13,122 bases of DNA from a virus. Both the position numbers and the translations under genes were made by a program. Shown piece after piece: positions 3,385-13,122 of this stretch. Location of the stretch: the UHGV virus genome UHGV-0105863, one strand, 5' to 3'. Each line of letters begins with the position of its first letter. The first letter of the stretch is position 1. The notes beneath the pieces are model-generated. The model had not been told where the DNA came from, did no database searches, and saw only the letters and a program-made list of their open reading frames with translations.

Positions 3385-5222
3385 TGAAAGTAACTGCAAA
3401 CGGTAAGACATTTACCTTCCCTGATGGTACGAGCACGGAAGATATTGGCACCGCCATTGATGAGTATTTTGCTGGTCAGGCTGTTCAGCAACAAACAGTT
3501 AATCAGGCCAATAATGAACCAGCACGTGAAGAACCATCATTGATGCAACAAGCTGGCGATTGGCTCACAGGTGGTCAAAGTGCAGGGCAAATTGCAGAGC
3601 AGGCTGGTCGTGGTCTGGTAAACATACCATTTGACGTATTGCAGGGCGGCGCAAGCCTGATTAATGCAATCAGTCAGGGGCTTGGTGGGCCAAAAGTATT
3701 GGATGATGTTTATCGTCCAGTAGACAGACCGACAGACCCCTACGCGCAAGCCGGTGAAACAATTGGTGGGTATTTAGTTCCAGGAGTTGGAACGGCAGGA
3801 AGCATGGCTATTGGATCACTGGCAGAGGCCGCAAATCAGAAAGGTGATTTCGCACAAAATGCAGCTAAAAATGCCGGAGTTAACCTTGCCGCTCAGGGTG
3901 TTCTTTCCGCAGCAGCAAAGGGAATAGGGCGTGGAATAACGGCTATAAAAGGTGATATTGCGCCAGAAGTGGCGAAGAAAATTGCCACATCAGAATCGAT
4001 GGGCGTGACACCAATGACATCTGATGTTATCCCGCCGAAAAACGCTTTCACTCGCGGACTTACTCAGGATGCTGAGGGGGCTTTGCTCGGGACAGGCTCA
4101 AAGCGAGCGGAGCAATATGCAACGCGTAGTAAGCTGGTAAGTAATTATTTTGACCGTTTTGGTGAGTACAACCCTGATGATGTGGTGAAATCTCTTACCA
4201 CCACGTTAAGGGGGCGGAAGGATGCCGCTGGCGCTGTTATCAATGACGTCACCAATAAAATGGGTAATGCCGCAGTTGATACCACAAATACCATGAATGC
4301 TCTGAATACAGCGATCGCAAGACAGGAACGGCTTGGGACGTCTGCCAATCAAAGCCTGCTTACATCCTTGCGTAACCTACGTGAAGAATTAGCAAACCCT
4401 GCAACTGATTTGGATGTTACGTTTGATCTCTTGCGTCAGCACAGAACAGCATTTAGATCTAATGTTCAGGGAGATGCTATGGTCTTCCCCAACCAGGCAA
4501 AAGCAGCTACCAATATGGTAGAGAATGCAATGTCAAAAGACCTTCGTAATGCAGTTGCTAAAAACCTCGGTGCATCAGACGCAGCAAAATACCTTAAAGC
4601 AAATTCCGATTATGCAAACGTTTATAATAAGGTGCTTAATAAAAACATTGCCAACAAGCTCAACAAGGCAAGCAGTGAAGCCAGTCCTGAACTTATAAAT
4701 ACCGTTGTATTAAGCAGAAAACCATCTGACGTGAAACGAATCTGGAGCGCACTGGATGATAAGGGGAAAGATGCTATGCGTGCAGCTTACGTCAGCAAAA
4801 TAGCGGAAAAGGCCGGGTACTCTCCAGCCAAGTTCATCACTGAAGTTAATAAGCTGAAATCTCAGTCAGGCGGTGAAATTTACAACACTATTTTTTCTGG
4901 AAAGCACATGAAAGAGCTTGATGCTCTTCATGAAGTTCTACAGCAAACAGCAAGGTCAGACACCGCAAATGTAGTAACTCAGACGGGGCAATCGCAAGCC
5001 AACAGGATAAGGACGATTGGCGCAACTGCGACCCTTGGCGTATCAATGGGGCTTGAGGCTGGTTTTGGTGCAATGATGCGCTTGTATGAGTCCAAAGCAG
5101 CAAGGAATGCTCTCTTACGTCTGGCAAACACTAAAACTGGAACGCCAGCCTATGAAAGAGCATTAAGTAACGCTGCAAATGCCATCAGACCGCTGCTTGC
5201 CACTGAGGCAACACAGCAGTGA
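3381..5222 (+). CDS. Ejection protein, P22 gp16-like (613 aa)
   Basis: ATGATG at 3381-3386 overlaps the gp20 stop TGA at 3382-3384. Size and position match P22 gp16 (about 609 aa from memory). Last gene of the ejection-protein block. Confidence 0.85.
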
Positions 5223-5239
5223 CTAAATGCCATGGATGG

Positions 5240-5428
5240 TTATTTCCTTAGCACATGAAACAATGTTTGCTTTAATTCCACCCATACAATTATGACCACT
5301 ATAGACAGACAAAAGAAACTGAATGCATTGGCATCACGATCGAAACCTTCTCCGGCACTAAATCCGTAAAAGGTCATAAAAAATATAAAAATTGCGCACT
5401 TTGCAACGTTTACAAATTTTTTCTTCAC
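5240..5428 (-). CDS. Small predicted membrane protein (62 aa, two hydrophobic segments), GTG start
   Basis: In-frame GTG at 5428-5426 (minus strand) is preceded by a perfect AGGAGG (plus 5434-5439), 5 nt upstream. Translation is VKKKFVNVAKCAIFIFFMTFYGFSAGEGFDRDANAFSFFCLSIVVIIVWVELKQTLFHVLRK. The 134-aa version in the ORF track would run antisense through the HExxH gene and has no RBS. Confidence 0.5.
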   Translation of the reverse strand: MKKKFVNVAKCAIFIFFMTFYGFSAGEGFDRDANAFSFFCLSIVVIIVWVELKQTLFHVLRK

Positions 5429-5458
5429 ACCAACCTCCTTAGTTTTGAGCAGGATACC

Positions 5459-5824
5459 ATGAAAAAAGTTAACATTGGAAACGTACCAAAGATGCTCGTT
5501 CCGCTCTTTGAGAGCGGTACAATTGTGTTTTGTAGAGACTTTCCAGAATGGCAACGCCTGCATCAAAAACTTGGTGTGGACGTGCAGGACTCGGATGCCA
5601 ACGGAGCGTCTCATACAATGAGCAGCGAGAATGGTGTTTTGCATGTGATAGGCGTGTTCAATGGCAAACTATCTACTATTGCCCATGAGTGCGCTCACAT
5701 GGCATTCGATATCTGCTCAAGGGTCGGTGTTGATGTTGAACCAGGAAGAGCCAACGAGACTTACTGCTACTTAATGAGCAGGCTTGTTGAGTTCTGCGAG
5801 CGACATATCAAAAAGCCGGAGTGA
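5459..5824 (+). CDS. HExxH zincin-like small protein (121 aa), putative metallopeptidase-fold
   Basis: ATG at 5459 with AGGA 4 nt upstream. Contains IAHECAHMAFDI (an HExxH motif) with glutamates about 20-25 residues downstream (VEPG, NETY) that could act as the third metal ligand. Stop lies inside a hairpin followed by a T-rich tract. Confidence 0.7.
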   Translation: MKKVNIGNVPKMLVPLFESGTIVFCRDFPEWQRLHQKLGVDVQDSDANGASHTMSSENGVLHVIGVFNGKLSTIAHECAHMAFDICSRVGVDVEPGRANETYCYLMSRLVEFCERHIKKPE

Positions 5825-5846
5825 CCCGGCTTGATTATTACTTTTT
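5808..5846. terminator. Hairpin between convergent genes, candidate bidirectional terminator
   Basis: AAGCCGG (5813-5819), 6-nt loop, CCGGCTT (5826-5832). Downstream on plus is GATTATTACTTTTTG. On minus only about 3-5 U follow the stem, so it is weaker in that direction. Confidence 0.45.
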
Positions 5847-6017
5847 GCTGTCTGGAGTTCGCTTATCTAATACCCAGCCATGACCTGGCTGTGTTGTTGG
5901 CGGAAGCCTTTCGTTGTCCTTGACGGTGGCAAAATTGTCTTTCTTACCGCCGCGCGGGCCAACCTCTTGGTATATTCCGCCGTTTTTTCCTGTGTTTTCA
6001 CCTGGTTTTTTCGCCAT
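5838..6017 (-). CDS. YjzC-like small protein (59 aa)
   Basis: ATG at 6017-6015 (minus) with GAGGT 7 nt upstream. MAKKPGENTGKNGGIYQEVGPRGGKKDNFATVKDNERLPPTTQPGHGWVL... matches my memory of the YjzC-like small protein family (G-x-Y-x-E-V-G ... P-x-T ... G-x-W). The MLRYI start at 6032 in the ORF track has no RBS. Confidence 0.6.
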   Translation of the reverse strand: MAKKPGENTGKNGGIYQEVGPRGGKKDNFATVKDNERLPPTTQPGHGWVLDKRTPDSKK

Positions 6018-6094
6018 GATATACCTCAACATACACCCGTTATTGGGCGATTAAATATTGATCTCATTTTATAAGTAGTCAATATGGCCCAGGC

Positions 6095-6126
6095 AAATGA
6101 AAAAATTAACCAGCCATCAGGCTGGT
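6095..6126 (-). terminator. Rho-independent terminator for the minus-strand secreted-protein gene
   Basis: ACCAGCC (6109-6115), loop ATCA, GGCTGGT (6120-6126). On the minus strand the hairpin is followed by UAAUUUUUUCAUUU. It sits directly after the stop codon at 6128-6130. Confidence 0.6.
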
Positions 6127-6127
6127 A

Positions 6128-6310
6128 TTAGTCACATTCTATTTCTTTTGTCGAGGTCCATACATAAGGATCTGAGCAAACAACCTCTCCATTTATCATG
6201 ACGTCATAGCCCATTAGATATGAGTTACCACCAACAACCTGGGCGGCGATGACGCTAATGCTGGCGGCGCAGGCTGCACCAAAAACGAAACCAATTAATA
6301 TATTTTTCAT
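6128..6310 (-). CDS. Small exported protein (60 aa) with N-terminal signal peptide and two Cys in the mature part
   Basis: [24 protein letters not shown] is a signal-peptide-like N-terminus without a canonical lipobox. The mature part of about 36 aa has Cys at positions 45 and 59. The gene has its own terminator. Confidence 0.55.
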
Positions 6311-6341
6311 TTTGATTCCAAATAGTTATAGGATGAAAGTT

Positions 6342-6527
6342 ATGACCATAGAAGAACGCCTGAACAACATTGAGTTGAACCAAACCTTGCTTGACCAGCG
6401 ACTTTCAGATCTTGAGCTTAAAGATCTAGATGCGCAAATATCAGAAGCAGAAGCCAAGCTCTCCAGCTTAAACCACCGTAAGAAGCAAATCCGCAACAGA
6501 ATTACTCAGGGACGCGGAAGCTGTTGA
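6342..6527 (+). CDS. Small coiled-coil protein (61 aa); alternative start at 6333
   Basis: AGGA at 6330-6333, 8 nt before the ATG at 6342. Translation MTIEERLNNIELNQTLLDQRLSDLELKDLDAQISEAEAKLSSLNHRKKQIRNRITQGRGSC has heptad-like L/I spacing. The 3' end overlaps orf69 convergently by 26 nt, so reality is uncertain. Confidence 0.4.
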   Translation: MTIEERLNNIELNQTLLDQRLSDLELKDLDAQISEAEAKLSSLNHRKKQIRNRITQGRGSC

Positions 6528-6711
6528 GGTGGGATGCTAGGTCTCTATCGTTAAAATCAAGGCTGCTAATCATTTCATTGTAAATGGCGTTTTTATCTTC
6601 CATTGGCAGTCTTGAGTAAACCAGACACAGAGCATATTTCAGGGAGTTTAGCTCTTTCTCTAGCTCTTCCTTGCTTGACGTTGTTGACTTAATAAACTGT
6701 TTTTTATTCAT
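6502..6711 (-). CDS. Hypothetical 69-aa protein, translationally coupled downstream of mnt
   Basis: Its ATG (plus 6711-6709) overlaps the mnt stop (ATGA), and AAGGA lies 6 nt upstream inside the mnt 3' end. Translation MNKKQFIKSTTSSKEELEKELNSLKYALCLVYSRLPMEDKNAIYNEMISSLDFNDRDLASHLNSFRVPE is acidic and helical. Confidence 0.6.
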   Translation of the reverse strand: MNKKQFIKSTTSSKEELEKELNSLKYALCLVYSRLPMEDKNAIYNEMISSLDFNDRDLASHLNSFRVPE

Positions 6712-6959
6712 TTTGCATCCTTACCATACATGGTCTTTAGCGTCTCAACATCGTGTTCAAGATCTATCAATCGTGATGCTATAGTTGCAAGGTCTAGTGC
6801 TTGAATGTGTTTATTTTTTTCGGTCCACGCTTCAAGTGCCGCGACCATCTCAGCATTTAATGAACGAGAATTAGCCTCAGCCAGTTCAATAAGACGTTCC
6901 TTTATCTCTACAGGAAGCCTCAGATTCACTTGAGGGTTTTTGTACTTACGATCAGACAT
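6708..6959 (-). CDS. mnt: Mnt-like ribbon-helix-helix repressor (83 aa), maintenance-of-lysogeny repressor of the immI region
   Basis: 83 aa, the same length as P22 Mnt. The N-terminal RHH signature NLRLPVEIKERLIELAEANSRSLNAEMVAALEAW is followed by a helical C-terminus. It is divergent from arc-ant, as in P22 immI, with AGGA 7 nt before the ATG. Confidence 0.85.
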   Translation of the reverse strand: MSDRKYKNPQVNLRLPVEIKERLIELAEANSRSLNAEMVAALEAWTEKNKHIQALDLATIASRLIDLEHDVETLKTMYGKDAK

Positions 6960-6987
6960 CGGCGCATCCTGAATAATTTTTTACCAC

Positions 6988-7016
6988 AGGATATGTAGGT
7001 ATCTATTGACTATCAA
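6988..7016 (-). promoter_or_regulatory. Candidate Pmnt (minus strand): TTGATA, 17-bp spacer, TATCCT
   Basis: The -35 is the reverse complement of plus 7011-7016 and the -10 is the reverse complement of plus 6988-6993. It lies about 20-30 nt upstream of the mnt ATG. The -10 is weak (4/6). Confidence 0.35.
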
Positions 7017-7025
7017 TGCGTACCT
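6997..7025. promoter_or_regulatory. Imperfect 29-bp palindrome AGGTA-n3-ATTGA-CTA-TCAAT-n3-TACCT, candidate repressor operator (Omnt-like)
   Basis: Read directly from the sequence. Centred at 7011, it covers the -35 of Pant and the -35 of the candidate Pmnt. The outer AGGT half-site recalls the P22 Omnt half-site (from memory). Confidence 0.4.
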
Positions 7026-7034
7026 AAATACTAT
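7006..7034 (+). promoter_or_regulatory. Pant-like sigma70 promoter: TTGACT, 17-bp spacer, TACTAT
   Basis: -35 at 7006-7011 and -10 at 7029-7034, about 30 nt upstream of the arc ATG. The -10 is flanked by two copies of ATGCGTACC (7016-7024 and 7037-7045). Confidence 0.55.
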
Positions 7035-7064
7035 GTATGCGTACCACATACAACGGAGGATGCA

Positions 7065-7205
7065 ATGAAGGTAAAAACACTGCGTATGCCAGAGAAGCTA
7101 GAAAAAATTCTTGAAGAAAAAGCAAAGGAAGAGTGTCGCTCATTCAGCGCAGAAGTAATTAAACGGGTGCTGGACAGCCTGAGGAGAGAGGGGATAACGG
7201 TGTGA
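7065..7205 (+). CDS. arc: Arc-like ribbon-helix-helix repressor (46 aa)
   Basis: GGAGG 6 nt upstream of the ATG at 7065. MKVKTLRMPEKLEKILEEKAKEECRSFSAEVIKRVLDSLRREGITV aligns by eye with P22 Arc (..RWPREVLDLVRKVAEENGRSVNSEIYQRVMESFKKEG..). It is below the 60-aa cutoff of the ORF track. The frame is intact. Confidence 0.8.
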   Translation: MKVKTLRMPEKLEKILEEKAKEECRSFSAEVIKRVLDSLRREGITV

Positions 7206-7227
7206 TTCGCTTGGATGCGGCAAAGAA

Positions 7228-7303
7228 ATCAAAACAGTGAAGCCCCAACTGCTGGAACAGTTAGGGCTTCGGTATCGTAAAACCACGCATAGGAATTAAC
7301 GAC
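7228..7303 (-). ncRNA. sar: sar-like small antisense RNA covering the ant ribosome-binding site and start codon
   Basis: A minus-strand promoter sits just inside ant, with a predicted start near plus 7303. The minus-strand terminator is a hairpin GAAGCCC/GGGCTTC (7239-7270, with inner stem AACTG/CAGTT) followed on the minus strand by ACUGUUUUGAUUUCUUU. Predicted length of about 70-75 nt matches P22 sar (about 69 nt from memory). Confidence 0.5.
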
Positions 7304-8227
7304 ATGAAAAGTATAGCAACAGCAGTATCTACTATCAATGTACCATTCCACGGCGCAGAGCTTTATGTTGTCAATCACAACGGCGAACCGTATACCCCAA
7401 TGAAACCTATCGTTGAGGGAATGGGGCTAGACTGGAAATCTCAACATAAGAAGATTTCTCAACGCTTCTCGAAGGGTATGGTGGAAATCACCATACCTTC
7501 TGCCGGTGGGGTGCAAGCCATGATTTGTATGGCTTTACGAAAATTGGCAGCTTGGTTGAACAGCATCAGTCCTAACAAAGTCCGCCCTGAAATCCGCGAC
7601 AAGGTAATCCAGTATCAGGAAGAGTGTGACGATGTGCTCTACGAGTACTGGACTAAAGGCCATGTAGTTAACCCACGCAAAGCTAAAAAGGCGTTGCCGG
7701 GTAAAATCACCACTGAACAGCAGGAAGCCATTAAACAACTCGTCATGAGTCGCGGTCAGTCTCTGCCAAAAGAAAAACAGGCGAAGGCGATGATCACCAT
7801 GTGGTCGTCACTGAAATCCCATTTTGGATGTTCGTACAAAGAAATCAGTGATGAGCAGTTTACCGAAGCACTGTCACTTGCTGCTCGCGTTCCGCTTGAA
7901 GGTGAGTTCATTGGCAAACAAGAGAAGAAAACCAACGAGCTTTCTGCAAAAGAAGCAAACAGCCTTGTATGGCTATGGGATTATGCCAACCGCTCACAGG
8001 CATTATTCCGCGAATTGTATCCGGCGCTAAAACAAATTCAATCGAACTATTCCGGCAGATGTCATGACTGCGGTTATGAGTTCTCCCGTATTATCGATAT
8101 GGCGAGAGACGTTTTAATCAATCACACACGAGATGTTGATATCAATGAGCCAGACGGACCAACGAATCTTTCCGCATGGATGAGACTTAAGAATAAAGAA
8201 TTACCTCCTTCAGTACATAACTACTGA
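7304..8227 (+). CDS. ant: Ant-like antirepressor (307 aa)
   Basis: Lies directly downstream of arc, as in P22 immI. Size is close to P22 Ant (about 300 aa). The N-terminal region resembles the phage antirepressor N-domain by memory. AGGA lies 9 nt before the ATG. Confidence 0.75.
   Translation: MKSIATAVSTINVPFHGAELYVVNHNGEPYTPMKPIVEGMGLDWKSQHKKISQRFSKGMVEITIPSAGGVQAMICMALRKLAAWLNSISPNKVRPEIRDKVIQYQEECDDVLYEYWTKGHVVNPRKAKKALPGKITTEQQEAIKQLVMSRGQSLPKEKQAKAMITMWSSLKSHFGCSYKEISDEQFTEALSLAARVPLEGEFIGKQEKKTNELSAKEANSLVWLWDYANRSQALFRELYPALKQIQSNYSGRCHDCGYEFSRIIDMARDVLINHTRDVDINEPDGPTNLSAWMRLKNKELPPSVHNY
7310..7338 (-). promoter_or_regulatory. Psar-like promoter on minus strand: TTGATA, 17-bp spacer, TATACT
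   Basis: The -35 is the reverse complement of plus 7333-7338 and the -10 is the reverse complement of plus 7310-7315. It is near-consensus and fires leftward across the ant start codon at 7304. Confidence 0.5.
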
Positions 8228-8245
8228 CAGATAACCAACGCAACG

Positions 8246-8270
8246 ACCCAGCTTCGGCTGGGTTTTTTTA
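8246..8270 (+). terminator. Rho-independent terminator after ant
   Basis: ACCCAGC (8246-8252), TTCG tetraloop, GCTGGGT (8257-8263), followed by seven T. A textbook intrinsic terminator. Confidence 0.8.
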
Positions 8271-8327
8271 TGCCAAAAATTCACCGTAGCCATGCTGCGG
8301 CCATTCCTTGTATCTGGAGCAAATCAA

Positions 8328-10673
8328 ATGACAGATTCAATAAATGCCAATGTTGTAGTGAGTATGCCTTCGCAACTCTTCACTATGGCTCGTTCTTTTA
8401 AAGCTGTAGCCAATGGCAAAATTTATATCGGTAAAATTGACACTGACCCGGTAAACCCTGAAAACCAGATTCAGGTTTATGTAGAGAACGAAGACGGTTC
8501 TCACGTTCCTGTTTCGCAACCAATCATCATTAACGCTGCTGGATATCCGGTATATAACGGACAGATTGCCAAGTTCGTTACTGTGCAAGGGCATTCTATG
8601 GCTGTTTATGATGCGTATGGTGCTCAGCAGTTCTATTTTCCTAATGTGCTAAAGTATGATCCAGATCAGTTTAGGCAGCAGCTTGCAGTAGTTGATAGCA
8701 ATGTATTGATTTCTGGTGTTCCAGCAAAAGATGTTGTAAATGCCAAAACTGGACGAGCACCAGTAGTTATGACTCGAAAAGTTACAGACCTTCTTCTTGA
8801 TGGTAAGGCTGGGTTGCGTAAAAACTTTGGTGCTGTAGGCGATGGTAGTCATGACGATACACAGGCATTTAATGATCTGTGGGATGCGCTTATGGATCCG
8901 ACATATAAACGCCGCGCAATAGAAACAGACGAGGTTGGTCTGCCATTTATGATACAAAAAGGCCCAGCACTTCTAATTGAAAATGGAACGTTTATTTACA
9001 ATGGGCCTGGTCTCAATATTGAAACATCAGATTCATTTGTATTTAACATATCAGGTGAGAGCAGTATTTCAACAAAGATACTTTTACCAGATGGAGTATA
9101 CCTATTCGATTTCGATAATAACCCTGTTCATGCATATCTAGGGAATATGTCAATTCATGGTGGTAAAGGTGCTGTTCGATACAAATCAAAAGAACGATCA
9201 ACTAACAGCATTCACCTTTTCGAAAATCTTCGCCTGTCGAGATACAAGGAGTGTGGCATAGGGAATAATTCAATCGATATGCCGTATTTCCGAGTGAAGG
9301 GATGCATGTTATACGGGGACCCAGCAAGCCAGACTATTGGTATTTGTGTCTCTGGTTACTCTGCTGGCGGCTTCATTGAGGACTGTGTTATCAGCGACAA
9401 TAGATATAATATAAAACTGGCAGTTGGTGATAATGGCGTGGAGCGTAATGGCCCTGCAACGCCTTTCTATGTCTGCAGGAACGACATGTACCGCACGGGG
9501 CGACGAGCGCCATCAGCATCGTATGACATATGGATTGAGCCTGGTGCTACTACCATCAACTCTGGGAGAGGTATTCAGATAATCCAAAATAAATTTGGGC
9601 AAGAAAACCTAATCGCACCAGATACTCATGTTTTGATCGCAGATGCTGCCGCTACAGGGAGCGGGTTAAATCTCAATGGAGATCGCGCTCATATAGAAAC
9701 ACAGTCAGTTGGTTTTGTGTCTGGCTTACGTTTCGAGGGGAATAACGTAAACTCAGCTAATAGTGGATATATTGCCCCTTTCATTCGCTCATTTACGCCA
9801 AACCTTGGAAATAACAAAATAAATGACCTTTATGACAATGACATGCCAGCAAGAATCATAGAGTTCGCGGGTGGCATAACCCAAAGTCAAATGACTAACC
9901 TTTCACGTACCAACGTCTTTAGTGCAGCCCAATGCATTGCGCTTCAGAAGGGTGTTGAACCTAAGTTGTTATCTAACCTTAATGATGTCTTCCGGCTTGA
10001 GGATCCTTTGGGGTTCTACGTCGGGCATCCTCAAGCTCAGGTTTTACCGTCAGGTTCTCAGCAGATTGGATTTGAATTGATCTACTCTGGGCCGACGTCG
10101 ACGATTGGGGTGAGTAACGCAACAAGATTATCGGTAAATAACTCATATGGAGGGATATCGGAAGCAACTGAAATCACAATGACCGCTTCTGATGGCGTGG
10201 CAGTTGCCACTGTTGTTGGCGGACTTGCTGGTAGGAAGCACTGGATTGATTTCGAGCTTAAGCGCGGGACAACAAACCCTGTTGGTTCTGTTGTTGTGGA
10301 GATAATGGATGCTTCCGGGTCAGTTCTCCAACTTCGTCGTATTATTTTAATAGACACTTTTCCACGCTGGCAGAAAGTCGCCATTCCTTATGTTCCAAAT
10401 GAAGACGGTAATATTGTAGTCAAATTCAGATCTAATCTTTATTCGGCTGGAACGGCAACTAACTTTATTGTCGGAAATCTCAATGTTTACAGGAATGAGG
10501 AGCGAGTCAATACAGGGCATAACTCAGGATTGAGGATGCAATGGAATCTACAACATACCGTAAGAGGTACAAGACACGAGTGGTATGACGCGTCAGGTAA
10601 TTTACGCTCCAAAAATGGGGTGCCGAGTGGGGATGCCGATGGGGTAATCATTAGCGCTAACCCAACATTGTAA
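8328..10673 (+). CDS. Tailspike protein (781 aa): P22-type head-binding N-terminal domain fused to a right-handed beta-helix receptor-binding domain
   Basis: Start taken at ATG 8328 ([12 protein letters not shown]...) with GGAG 8 nt upstream; the ORF-track start at 8292 adds 12 residues absent from P22 gp9. The first ~115 residues (..[34 protein letters not shown]...[14 protein letters not shown]......VLKYDPDQ) match P22 gp9 from memory. Downstream is unrelated and contains [19 protein letters not shown], a typical pectate-lyase-fold motif. Confidence 0.9.
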
Positions 10674-10736
10674 AAATTTGATCTTCGCATAGCTAGAAGT
10701 TACTGTATATAAAAACAGCATTGTGAGGTTATAGAC

Positions 10737-10976
10737 ATGATCAGACGCAACATAATTTCGGAGGCTTTCAGAGCCTCCATTTCTATAAATCCTAAAGGTT
10801 ATCAATACCTTTACACGCATTCTTTCATCTCCGAACTACAGAGGATGGGTATCAATTTCTCAGAAGAGGAGGCTAACAACTGGATATCGAGAGAGCAGAC
10901 TTACTTTGTTGACAAAACCACCGACCATAGCGAAAACCGCCTGTGGATGCTGGCCAATATGGGTAGGGTTCTCTGA
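10737..10976 (+). CDS. Hypothetical protein (79 aa) downstream of tailspike
   Basis: ATG with GAGG 9 nt upstream. No recognisable motif. Sits where P22 carries its conversion genes. Confidence 0.45.
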   Translation: MIRRNIISEAFRASISINPKGYQYLYTHSFISELQRMGINFSEEEANNWISREQTYFVDKTTDHSENRLWMLANMGRVL

Positions 10977-11905
10977 TGTGATTTCCATCACCGGCGTCCG
11001 ACTACGTCGAGCAGCTACTGTCCGTTAACTCGATATGCAATGTTGGTCCTAACACATTGTTGCTTGAAACCAGTGGTGGATATGCCGTGGTTGATGTCTC
11101 TCTGAAACTTAAGCAGAGATGTCAGGTGATGGTCTGCTATGAAGCACATAATCAGATAGCGAAGCTTATGGGGAAATCTTTGATAACGGAGGATGGAGAG
11201 GCGATCGAGGGAGAGGCCCTGGATGATGTCACCGTTGCCGTCGTGGTGACGCATATTATCGTGGATGTGAGAAGTGACAGCGTAGCAGTATAAGGCAGAC
11301 CCACAATCAGGGACTACCGATTTTGATTACTCCACCTTTTCATCAAGCCAATCTGCCCACCATTGCATCATTTCTCTGCATTTATCGTAGTTGATGCAAC
11401 ACTATCACACTGTAATAGCTTATTACTGGTTTGCAGACAGGTAGGCATGAACAGATACCTGCGCATGAAGACGGAACTAGTCCAGATGTGATATTTGTGG
11501 TGATCACATACATCATCAACGATGCTCGTTATGGTGAGTTTGATGACTACCCACTGAAGTGAAAATTGTGTTGTGTACCAAATTGCGTACCAAACTAAAA
11601 TCACAAATTATGAAACCCTTGTTCATGGCGGCTCTCAGGGGTGTTGCGCGTAATCGTGAAACAAAAAGGTAGATTGTTGCTTACCGTCATTCATCATTAG
11701 GTTAAATCCGTTATTTCTGCTGTCTGCCAGAGTATCAAATATCACCGTGCTAATCAGCTTTAGCGCGACAATTTGGCAGCGAGTGACAACAGATCATGTC
11801 AGATAAAAATGAGATAGTAGTCACATTTTCTTGCACTTTATTCCAGCCAGTTCATAAGTATTTCCGTAAAAAGAACAGCTATTTGAAACACCTGAGGGTT
11901 TGCTG

Positions 11906-13072
11906 TTGAAACGCCGTCTTATTATTGCTGCTTCTTTGTTCGTTTTTAATTTATCGTCTGGTTTTGCGGCGGAAAACATTCCTTTTTCACCTCAGCCTCC
12001 AGAGATTCATGCCGGGTCCTGGGTATTGATGGATTACACCACCGGTCAGATTCTCACTGCGGGTAATGAGCATCAACAGCGCAATCCCGCCAGCCTGACA
12101 AAGCTGATGACGGGCTATGTCGTGGATCGCGCTATCGATAGTCATCGCATTACGCCAGACGATATTGTCACCGTGGGGCGTGATGCGTGGGCGAAAGATA
12201 ATCCGGTGTTTGTCGGTTCTTCACTGATGTTTTTGAAAGAGGGCGATCGCGTATCGGTACGTGATTTAAGCCGAGGTTTAATTGTGGATTCCGGAAATGA
12301 CGCTTGTGTTGCTCTGGCTGACTATATTGCCGGTGGGCAACGGCAGTTTGTTGAAATGATGAACAACTATGCCGAGAAGCTGCATCTCAAGGATACGCAT
12401 TTTGAAACAGTGCATGGTCTGGATGCACCTGGCCAGCATAGCTCGGCTTATGATTTAGCCGTGCTTTCTCGCGCTATCATCCACGGCGAGCCCGAGTTTT
12501 ATCATATGTACAGTGAGAAAAGCCTCACCTGGAACGGTATCACCCAGCAAAACCGTAACGGGTTATTGTGGGATAAGACCATGAATGTTGACGGCCTGAA
12601 AACGGGCCATACTTCTGGTGCCGGGTTTAATCTTATTGCTTCGGCTGTAGACGGGCAGCGTCGCCTCATTGCAGTGGTAATGGGTGCTGACAGCGCAAAA
12701 GGTCGTGAGGAAGAGGCAAAAAAATTACTGCGTTGGGGGCAACAAAACTTTACTACGGTGCAAATTTTGCACCGTAGGAAAAAGGTCGGTACGGAACGCA
12801 TCTGGTATGGTGATAAAGAAAATATCGCCCTGGGAACGGAACAAGAGTTCTGGATGGTGCTACCGAAAGCCGAAATTCCACATATCAAAGCCAAATATAC
12901 CCTTGATGGTAAAGAGCTCACCGCGCCAATTAGCGCCCATCAGCGGGTAGGGGAAATTGAACTTTACGACCGTGATAAACAGGTGGCGCACTGGCCGCTG
13001 GTTACCCTGGAATCTGTCGGGGAAGGCAGCATGTTTTCTCGCCTGAGTGATTATTTCCACCATAAGGCCTGA
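11906..13072 (+). CDS. dacD: D-alanyl-D-alanine carboxypeptidase DacD (PBP6b), host chromosomal gene
   Basis: Start taken at TTG 11906 (MKRRLIIAASLFVFNLSSGFA signal peptide) with GAGGG 7 nt upstream, giving 388 aa; the ORF-track start at 11900 gives 390 aa. Contains the class A PBP motifs SLTK (SxxK), SGN and KTG. I recognise the sequence as enterobacterial DacD. Confidence 0.9.
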   Translation: MKRRLIIAASLFVFNLSSGFAAENIPFSPQPPEIHAGSWVLMDYTTGQILTAGNEHQQRNPASLTKLMTGYVVDRAIDSHRITPDDIVTVGRDAWAKDNPVFVGSSLMFLKEGDRVSVRDLSRGLIVDSGNDACVALADYIAGGQRQFVEMMNNYAEKLHLKDTHFETVHGLDAPGQHSSAYDLAVLSRAIIHGEPEFYHMYSEKSLTWNGITQQNRNGLLWDKTMNVDGLKTGHTSGAGFNLIASAVDGQRRLIAVVMGADSAKGREEEAKKLLRWGQQNFTTVQILHRRKKVGTERIWYGDKENIALGTEQEFWMVLPKAEIPHIKAKYTLDGKELTAPISAHQRVGEIELYDRDKQVAHWPLVTLESVGEGSMFSRLSDYFHHKA

Positions 13073-13122
13073 CCTTTCTTTTGCAGCAGACTGGCAGGAG
13101 TGCGAGTCTGCTCGCATAATCA

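Follow-up and report, generated by a model that had tools for sequence, protein, structure and literature searches.

The spacer between arc and ant in the Escherichia coli prophage analysed here very probably encodes a homologue of the sar RNA of phage P22, an RNA that would act in cis as an antisense block of the Shine-Dalgarno sequence of the antirepressor gene ant. An earlier note on this DNA, made from the sequence alone, had predicted a sar-like antisense RNA directed against the ant translation start, and the match to the Rfam family, the alignment with P22 and epsilon34, the flanking genes, and the conservation of the element among relatives all agree with that prediction. We infer that the transcript is made in this prophage, with the exact ends given below, and that it represses the translation of ant.

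Genomic context

The window, by which we mean the whole stretch of DNA that was analysed (13,122 nucleotides), comes from a P22-like (Lederbergvirus-type) prophage of E. coli and contains host DNA at its right end, where homology to the host begins near position 11320 and the host gene dacD occupies 11900-13072. Domain and gene calls reveal a complete immI region, in which mnt (6708..6959, minus strand) encodes an 83-aa repressor of the Arc/Mnt family (Arc family), arc (7065..7205, plus strand) encodes a 46-aa Arc-family repressor (Pfam Arc), and ant (7304..8227, plus strand) encodes an antirepressor of 307 aa (Pfam P22_AR_N and P22_AR_C), all three genes being intact. Overlapping divergent promoter-like sites corresponding to Pant and Pmnt lie at 6988..7034, with a Pant-like TTGACT-17-TACTAT on the plus strand (7006-7034) and a Pmnt-like TTGATA-17-TATCCT on the minus strand (7016-6988). 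Genes for ejection proteins (gp7, injectosome translocase) are found upstream of immI, and the tailspike gene (8292-10673) is directly downstream of ant, beyond a terminator-like site located 3' of the latter (8245-8264). The plus-strand target of the predicted RNA comprises the ant Shine-Dalgarno sequence AGGA (7291-7294) and, 9 nt further on, the start codon ATG (7304-7306). No RNA gene is annotated at the position of sar in the PGAP records of near-identical E. coli prophages or in the GenBank record of CUS-3, the nearest sequenced phage.

Identity and extent of the RNA

The Rfam sar model (RF00262) matches the minus strand at 7302..7236 over its full length (model positions 1-68 of 68), with 71.2 bits against a gathering score of 43 and an E value of 1.7e-13, which puts the element as a whole far beyond chance. 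The matched segment is complementary to positions 7236-7302 of the plus strand, the AGGA of the ant leader included, and a covariance model built for the present analysis (R1) matches 7303..7230. Among the other Rfam families none reaches threshold in the window; the c4 RNA of phages P1 and P7 (Rfam C4), in particular, has no match there, and the element also lies on the strand opposite ant. Taken together, the Rfam match, the P22 register, and the terminator delimit a predicted sar RNA of about 71-73 nt on the minus strand (7231..7303). The corresponding 76-nt stretch (7304..7229) folds into two hairpins with a free energy of -31.6 kcal/mol (z -5.6), and none of 200 shuffles folded as well. 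The model score, the antisense position, the register of the promoter, the two stem-loops, and the immI context all place the element within RF00262.

In P22, sar is an RNA of 68/69 nt that prevents translation of the ant mRNA by pairing with it at the ribosome-binding site (PMC12197685, PMC7968456, PMC2629481, PMC11016777), and it has been seen by small-RNA sequencing of infected cells (PMC13397905). The P22 annotation (NC_002371) places sar at 15021-15090, its promoter Psar at 15097-15125, and its terminator at 15021-15058; epsilon34 is annotated alike. Comparison with P22 sar had been proposed as a check of the prediction, and the promoter, the start register, and the terminator of the window all align with these annotated features. 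P22 and the window both have Psar at the very beginning of the ant coding sequence, directed along the minus strand, with aligned copies of TGCTATACT and the start at -1 of the ATG; both RNAs form two hairpins, of which the first contains the anti-Shine-Dalgarno sequence and the second is nearly identical (30/32 nt); and in both the arc-ant spacer that holds the element belongs to an immI region placed between ejection-protein and tailspike genes. The differences are minor. Hairpin I is of another type in the window (type B, UCGUUA/UUACGA) than in P22 (GUUGGU/ACUGAC), the changes being compensated, with one U.U mismatch. The -35 hexamer is TTGATA in the window (5/6 to consensus) and GTGTTA in P22 (3/6), and the U-tract of the window, ACUGUUUUGAUUUCUUU, is far better than the AACUUUACG of P22. 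Finally, the arc-ant spacer measures 98 nt in the window and 68 nt in P22, and owes its greater length to the separation of the sar tail from arc: what the 3' end of sar overlaps in the window is the last part of a remnant ORF of 12 codons.

The resemblance to CUS-3 (a phage of E. coli K1, CP000711) is closer, with 95.6% identity over the immI control region (6960-7400), an identical promoter, and an identical hairpin I; the Rfam sar model scores 84.6 bits in CUS-3. Hairpin II differs between the two at two positions, at one of which a G.U pair of CUS-3 is replaced by A-U in the window. They also differ in the 3' tail and the upstream ORF, and CUS-3 has extra sequence inserted between arc and sar, part of which is a Cys-rich codon run.

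Promoter and transcription start

The earlier note had described a near-consensus minus-strand promoter, TTGATA-17-TATACT, inside ant, and this promoter is indeed found at 7338..7310, with an extended -10 in addition. The -35 hexamer TTGATA (7338..7333) is separated by a 17-nt spacer from TATACT (7315..7310), and a TG at -15/-14 makes an extended -10 element, TGC+TATACT (7310..7318, minus strand), complementary to AGT ATA GCA, codons 3-5 of ant; the whole of Psar thus lies within ant codons 3-12, on the opposite strand. It is the sole 10-of-12 promoter match across 6400-8400. When up to 2 mismatches are allowed, the window contains a single copy of the pattern where 0.10 would be expected, and at least one match was present in 20/200 shuffles, so that the promoter taken by itself is only suggestive.

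By homology with the P22 register, transcription is predicted to start at minus-strand G7303, seven bases past the -10: this G is the base immediately before the ant ATG, exactly where the annotated 5' end of P22 sar lies. This bears on the earlier description of the promoter as pointing leftward across the start codon and the ribosome-binding site of ant. A transcript starting at 7303 covers the Shine-Dalgarno AGGA, and since it begins at -1 the start codon is probably outside it.

Terminator

As minus-strand RNA, stem-loop II (7270..7239) is an uninterrupted stem of 14 bp, including 2 G.U pairs, closed by the 4-nt loop UCCA, with a free energy of -24.4 kcal/mol and a z score of -5.6. It is followed by the tail ACUGUUUUGAUUUCUUUG (7221..7238, minus strand), and the RNA is expected to end within the U4 run (7231-7234). 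Read as plus-strand RNA, the hairpin has mismatches where the G.U pairs were, which gives an internal loop, the free energy is -20.7 kcal/mol, and the sequence that follows, GGUAUCGUAAAACC, has no U-run; a terminator scan reports the hairpin on the minus strand only. The hairpin and its strand had been recognised correctly in the earlier note, as had the U-tract specific to the minus strand, whereas the stem, described there as an interrupted one of 12 bp, has 14 bp in the RNA once G.U pairs are counted. Similarly, the hairpin, which had been placed about 65-75 nt beyond the promoter, spans nucleotides 33-64 from the predicted start, and the RNA ends at about 70-73 nt. We also considered that the hairpin might terminate plus-strand (arc) transcripts and rejected this, because that strand has no U-run and a weaker stem.

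The position of the terminator is relevant to what the transcript could do further leftward. Downstream of Psar, on the same strand, lies mnt (6708-6959), and Psar and Pant are convergent, about 300 bp apart, so one could imagine that Psar mainly drives a longer read-through RNA, antisense to arc and reaching mnt, for which it would serve as a second promoter or through which it would interfere with Pant. We give this hardly any credence: a 14-bp stem of -24.4 kcal/mol followed by UGUUUUGAUUUCUUU is a strong terminator, mnt has a promoter-like site of its own, and P22, with a weaker tail, still yields an RNA of 68/69 nt (PMC12197685). A short antisense RNA ending at stem-loop II is thus the reading that we retain.

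Covariation of the stem-loops

Stem-loop I (7303..7274, minus strand; GUCGU/ACGAU and inner pairs) carries the anti-Shine-Dalgarno UCCU (7294..7291) in its upper part, around a small inner helix of 2 bp. It is weak when folded alone (-6.4 kcal/mol, z about -1.4), and it is supported by covariation. Its sequences fall into three main types, with compensatory changes between them: type A, GUUGGU/ACYGAC, in P22; type B, UCGUUA/UUACGA with a U.U mismatch at one pair, in the window, CUS-3, and TL-2011b; and type C, UCAAUA/UGUUGA, in Kapi1 and O157 prophages.

We studied covariation with a covariance model made from ten sequences, the structure of which was given by hand, and the search with this model gave 39 matches, of which the 35 distinct ones constitute the alignment. 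Standard pairs are present in 93.1% of the cells of this alignment, against 37-44% when the partner is slid by 1-3 columns; changes on both sides are seen in 11 of the 21 pairs, including all seven of hairpin I, counts that are biased toward the modelled structure since the alignment was fitted to it; and the observed covariation score was reached by 0/500 shuffles, the sequences being mosaic, partly close kin, and hence not independent. In hairpin II, the lower 7 bp are almost invariant and give therefore no information on structure, while the upper part covaries (4 pairs). RNAalifold on plain MAFFT alignments recovered hairpin II and not hairpin I, because the three sequence types and the variable spacers of the latter were misaligned. 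Weak matches to the covariance model were obtained for L035, L078, and L085, and also for L037, L118, and L122.

Conservation among relatives

By blastn, the sar region is matched in 884 of the 5426 complete E. coli genomes searched, at as many as three places in a single genome. In most of these matches the conserved block corresponds to query positions 39-120, i.e. 7238-7319 in the window, and extends from the base of the terminator to the extended -10. The RF00262 threshold is passed by 16 of the 18 loci that were fetched from phages and E. coli. More divergent copies were added by scanning viral contigs for the palindromic pattern GAAGCCC-N17-19-GGGCTTC and then applying nhmmer; among the viral-contig matches listed, nhmmer left about 20 sar-like loci out of 120, the others being mostly unrelated hairpins. 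The fetched loci and the viral-contig copies together gave 32 distinct sequences for the comparison of relatives.

In 31 of these 32, exactly 3 nt separate the end of the -10 hexamer from the ATG complement, the hexamer being TATACT, TACAAT, TACACT, TATAGT, TACATT, TACTAT, TAAACT, or TAAGCT; the exception, L080, has TATGAT at a distance of 4 nt, a shift of 1 nt. The motif shared with P22, TGCTATACT, is common to 25 of the 32, and in the others the hexamer varies and is still -10-like. The base after the ATG complement is G in all relatives except Emek. Across the same lineages codon 3 of the antirepressor encodes Ser, Ile, Thr, or Asn, and codon 4 encodes Ile, Val, or Leu. The protein itself begins with a P22_AR_N, Bro-N, or ORF6N domain. 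The key bases of the -10 are thus kept despite differing codons 3-4 and differing N-terminal domains, so that the constraint is on the promoter and not on the protein; a protein-coding cause of the conservation of the -10 was rejected on these grounds. The earlier note had named conservation of the promoter and the hairpin in relatives as a test of its prediction: both are kept across the 32 distinct sequences, and the stems covary.

Conservation by itself could reflect recent shared ancestry or hitch-hiking with ant, in which case the element would be a silent relic, a sar homologue that is not transcribed or does not regulate in this prophage. The argument for transcription and regulation here is indeed one of homology, and decay does occur in the family, as seen in Emek, which has a degraded -10 (TAAGCT) and an ant flagged '(Defective?)' by its annotator. 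We nevertheless consider a relic very unlikely, because the signals in the window are all intact, the -35 (5/6 against 3/6) and the U-tract are nearer to consensus than those of the functional P22 sar, mnt, arc, and ant are uninterrupted, and the -10 is kept across lineages that use different codons. A functional sar remains the better account of these observations.

Mosaic junctions around stem-loop II

Between arc and hairpin II lies an ORF of 12 codons, MIRLDAAKKSKQ* (7202-7240), whose GTG start overlaps the arc stop and whose TGA stop overlaps the base of hairpin II. In APEC16-1068 and phiv205-1 an ORF of 57 aa has the same start and the same end, so the window carries an in-frame deletion between short repeats. 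The left side of the hairpin is variable more generally: at least five different 3' tails adjoin hairpin II, and in the E. coli prophage XJW9B263 the match to the window (97.8%) begins exactly at 7238 and runs rightward, with none to the left. Junctions also occur within the element, since FORC_082 and EcE.CRE.COL have a type B promoter joined to a type C hairpin I.

One might conclude from such breakpoints, placed exactly at the base of the hairpin (7238 in XJW9B263, at least five tails overall), that hairpin II is chiefly a linker at a module boundary, or a structure of the arc-ant mRNA, and that the ant coding sequence gives rise to the promoter-like site incidentally, with no antisense function. 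The lower 7 bp, near-invariant and not covarying, would suit this explanation, and in the CUS-3 record the entire arc-ant interval (6505-6986 in that record) bears the label of a boundary sequence, 'bsq2', with neither arc nor sar annotated. Yet it leaves unexplained the -10 in fixed register, the purine start, the covarying hairpin I, and the strand asymmetry (G.U pairs and U-tract on the minus strand only), and hairpin II itself covaries in its upper part (4 pairs). We therefore judge it highly improbable as a substitute for the antisense function. The roles of boundary and terminator are in any case compatible, and the former does not displace the latter. The data fit a conserved hairpin II that is also a recombination joint, besides being a terminator; since only the antisense reading accounts for the register of the promoter, the asymmetry between the strands, and the covariation in hairpin I, the role of joint adds to this reading and does not replace it.

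Discussion

The features described above suggest a mechanism like that of P22. A sigma-70 promoter, Psar, in the first codons of ant and on the opposite strand, would start transcription at about G7303, and the transcript would run leftward through the arc-ant spacer to end at the hairpin 7270..7239 and its U-tract, giving an RNA of about 72 nt with two hairpins. Convergent transcription from Pant may activate Psar. Being encoded in cis, sar has perfect complementarity to the leader of the ant mRNA, including the AGGA at 7291-7294, and the pairing of the two would bury the ribosome-binding site and block the translation of ant. As ant is placed between late ejection-protein and tailspike genes, late read-through transcripts would carry it and a post-transcriptional brake would be needed. 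As in P22, sar would limit the production of Ant from transcripts that are outside the control of Arc and Mnt, mainly those arising by read-through of the late operon toward tailspike, and this effect may favour the establishment and the stability of lysogeny.

Other small RNAs resemble sar in how they act. The c4 RNA of P1 and P7 also blocks the translation of an antirepressor by pairing around the ribosome-binding site. It is encoded on the same strand as its target and upstream of it, is processed from a precursor transcript, and pairs via short loop sequences; we know of no homology, in sequence or in structure, between c4 and sar. The c4 RNA blocks its ant target by pairing around the ribosome-binding site and serves as an immunity determinant (PMC12197685). 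Classic antisense regulators encoded in cis are lambda OOP and IS10 RNA-OUT, which are, like sar, short constitutive cis-antisense RNAs with their own promoter and intrinsic terminator. OOP targets the 3' end of cII and works via RNase III-dependent decay rather than by occluding a ribosome-binding site, and RNA-OUT targets the transposase; neither is, to our knowledge, homologous to sar. Occlusion of the ribosome-binding site is nonetheless also the mode of action of RNA-OUT (cited in PMC7968456).

The element described here is an ordinary member of a curated and experimentally characterised family, and since standard Rfam scanning labels it as such, it counts as already known. The value of its recognition is chiefly for annotation, with no new biology past the P22 paradigm. 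It does explain several features of the locus: the nucleotide-level conservation of the arc-ant spacer and of the first ant codons, the retention of a rare ATA at codon 4 of ant, and the clustering of prophage mosaic junctions at 7238.

The sequences compared here also contain a near-invariant terminator hairpin at junctions, at least three discrete and compensated types of hairpin I, and three kinds of antirepressor N-terminal domain. A speculative reading of them, which we regard as unlikely, is that the sar cassette is a portable, modular immunity element, in which the types of hairpin I are specificity classes for a heteroimmunity-like control in trans among P22-like phages. If the type of hairpin I sets specificity, the sar of a resident prophage could block in trans, and in a type-specific manner, the ant mRNA of a superinfecting P22-like phage, which would resemble the c4-based heteroimmunity of P1 and P7. 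E. coli genomes with several copies of the element would then hold sar/ant pairs that either interact or are insulated from one another.

A mosaic junction at the base of hairpin II, the predicted sar terminator stem

By sequence comparison, window position 7238, at the base of hairpin II (the terminator stem of the predicted antisense RNA sar), is a mosaic junction. The match between the window and a prophage of E. coli XJW9B263, at 97.8%, begins exactly at 7238 and extends rightwards only, spanning ant and the tailspike gene up to the host flank, whereas left of 7238 no match to this prophage was found. Among the relatives, at least five unrelated 3' tails adjoin hairpin II.

On the plus strand, a remnant ORF of 12 codons occupies 7202-7240 (GTG to TGA, MIRLDAAKKSKQ*); its start codon shares bases with the arc stop (GTGTGA), and its stop codon overlaps the foot of the terminator stem of sar. 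APEC16-1068 and phiv205-1 carry in its place a 57-aa ORF that opens and closes with the same codons. In the alignment the window, and likewise AHM8C160RI, lacks about 135 nt of this ORF through an in-frame deletion, which lies between two short repeats, CTTGGATGC and CTTGATGCGG. For all the arrangements checked (P22 arc, CUS-3, the window, and APEC16-1068), the stop of the upstream ORF lies at most about 5 nt from the hairpin base.

In the GenBank record of CUS-3 (CP000711), positions 1519-2000 of the locus (L002) are labelled 'bsq2; boundary sequence'. Within this interval lie an arc gene that closely resembles the one in the window, an extra stretch that includes a Cys-rich codon run, and a sar scoring 84.6 bits with Rfam; none of the three is annotated within 'bsq2' in that record.

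Flanking putative control elements and the right end of the prophage

Upstream of arc, overlapping divergent promoter-like sites occur within 6988-7052, Pant-like (arc-ant) on the plus strand and Pmnt-like (mnt) on the minus strand. Next come an inverted repeat, TGTATGCGTACCACATACA (7034-7052), and a direct repeat of ATGCGTACC; these repeats are likely Arc/Mnt operator sites, with sequences that differ from the P22 operators.

A strong intrinsic-terminator-like site on the plus strand (8245-8264) separates ant, which stops at 8227, from the tailspike gene, which starts at 8292. It consists of GACCCAGC-TTCG-GCTGGGTT followed by a T-run starting TTTTT, and its position is comparable to that of the P22 terminator after ant. 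The tailspike gene (8292-10673, plus strand) encodes 793 aa, with a Pfam match confined to the N-terminal head-binding domain (residues 16-126); the Pfam search gave no family match for the receptor-binding part, which differs from the endosialidase found in CUS-3.

Among complete E. coli genomes, none matches window 5200-11900 over 80% or more of its length. From about 11320 onward the window is matched by nearly all E. coli genomes, and these matches mark about 11320-13122 as host chromosome. Together with the host gene dacD (DD-carboxypeptidase, 11900-13072), they place the right end of the prophage in the interval from 10673 to about 11320. A search of the window for tRNA genes gave none.

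A possibly decaying sar cassette, and sar-like cassettes before other antirepressors

In the Salmonella phage Emek (L013 653-766), the -10 of Psar, the sar promoter, is degraded (TAAGCT, 3/6), and an A instead of a G directly follows the ATG complement. The annotator's note on Emek ant carries the flag '(Defective?)', which suggests that this sar/ant pair may be decaying.

Sar-like cassettes also precede antirepressors whose N-terminal domain is not P22_AR_N, namely Bro-N proteins (loci L031, L051, L056, L083, L037, and L015) and an ORF6N protein (L065). The cassettes at these loci comprise a -10 in codons 3-4, a hairpin I with the anti-Shine-Dalgarno sequence, and a GAAGCCC..GGGCTTC terminator.
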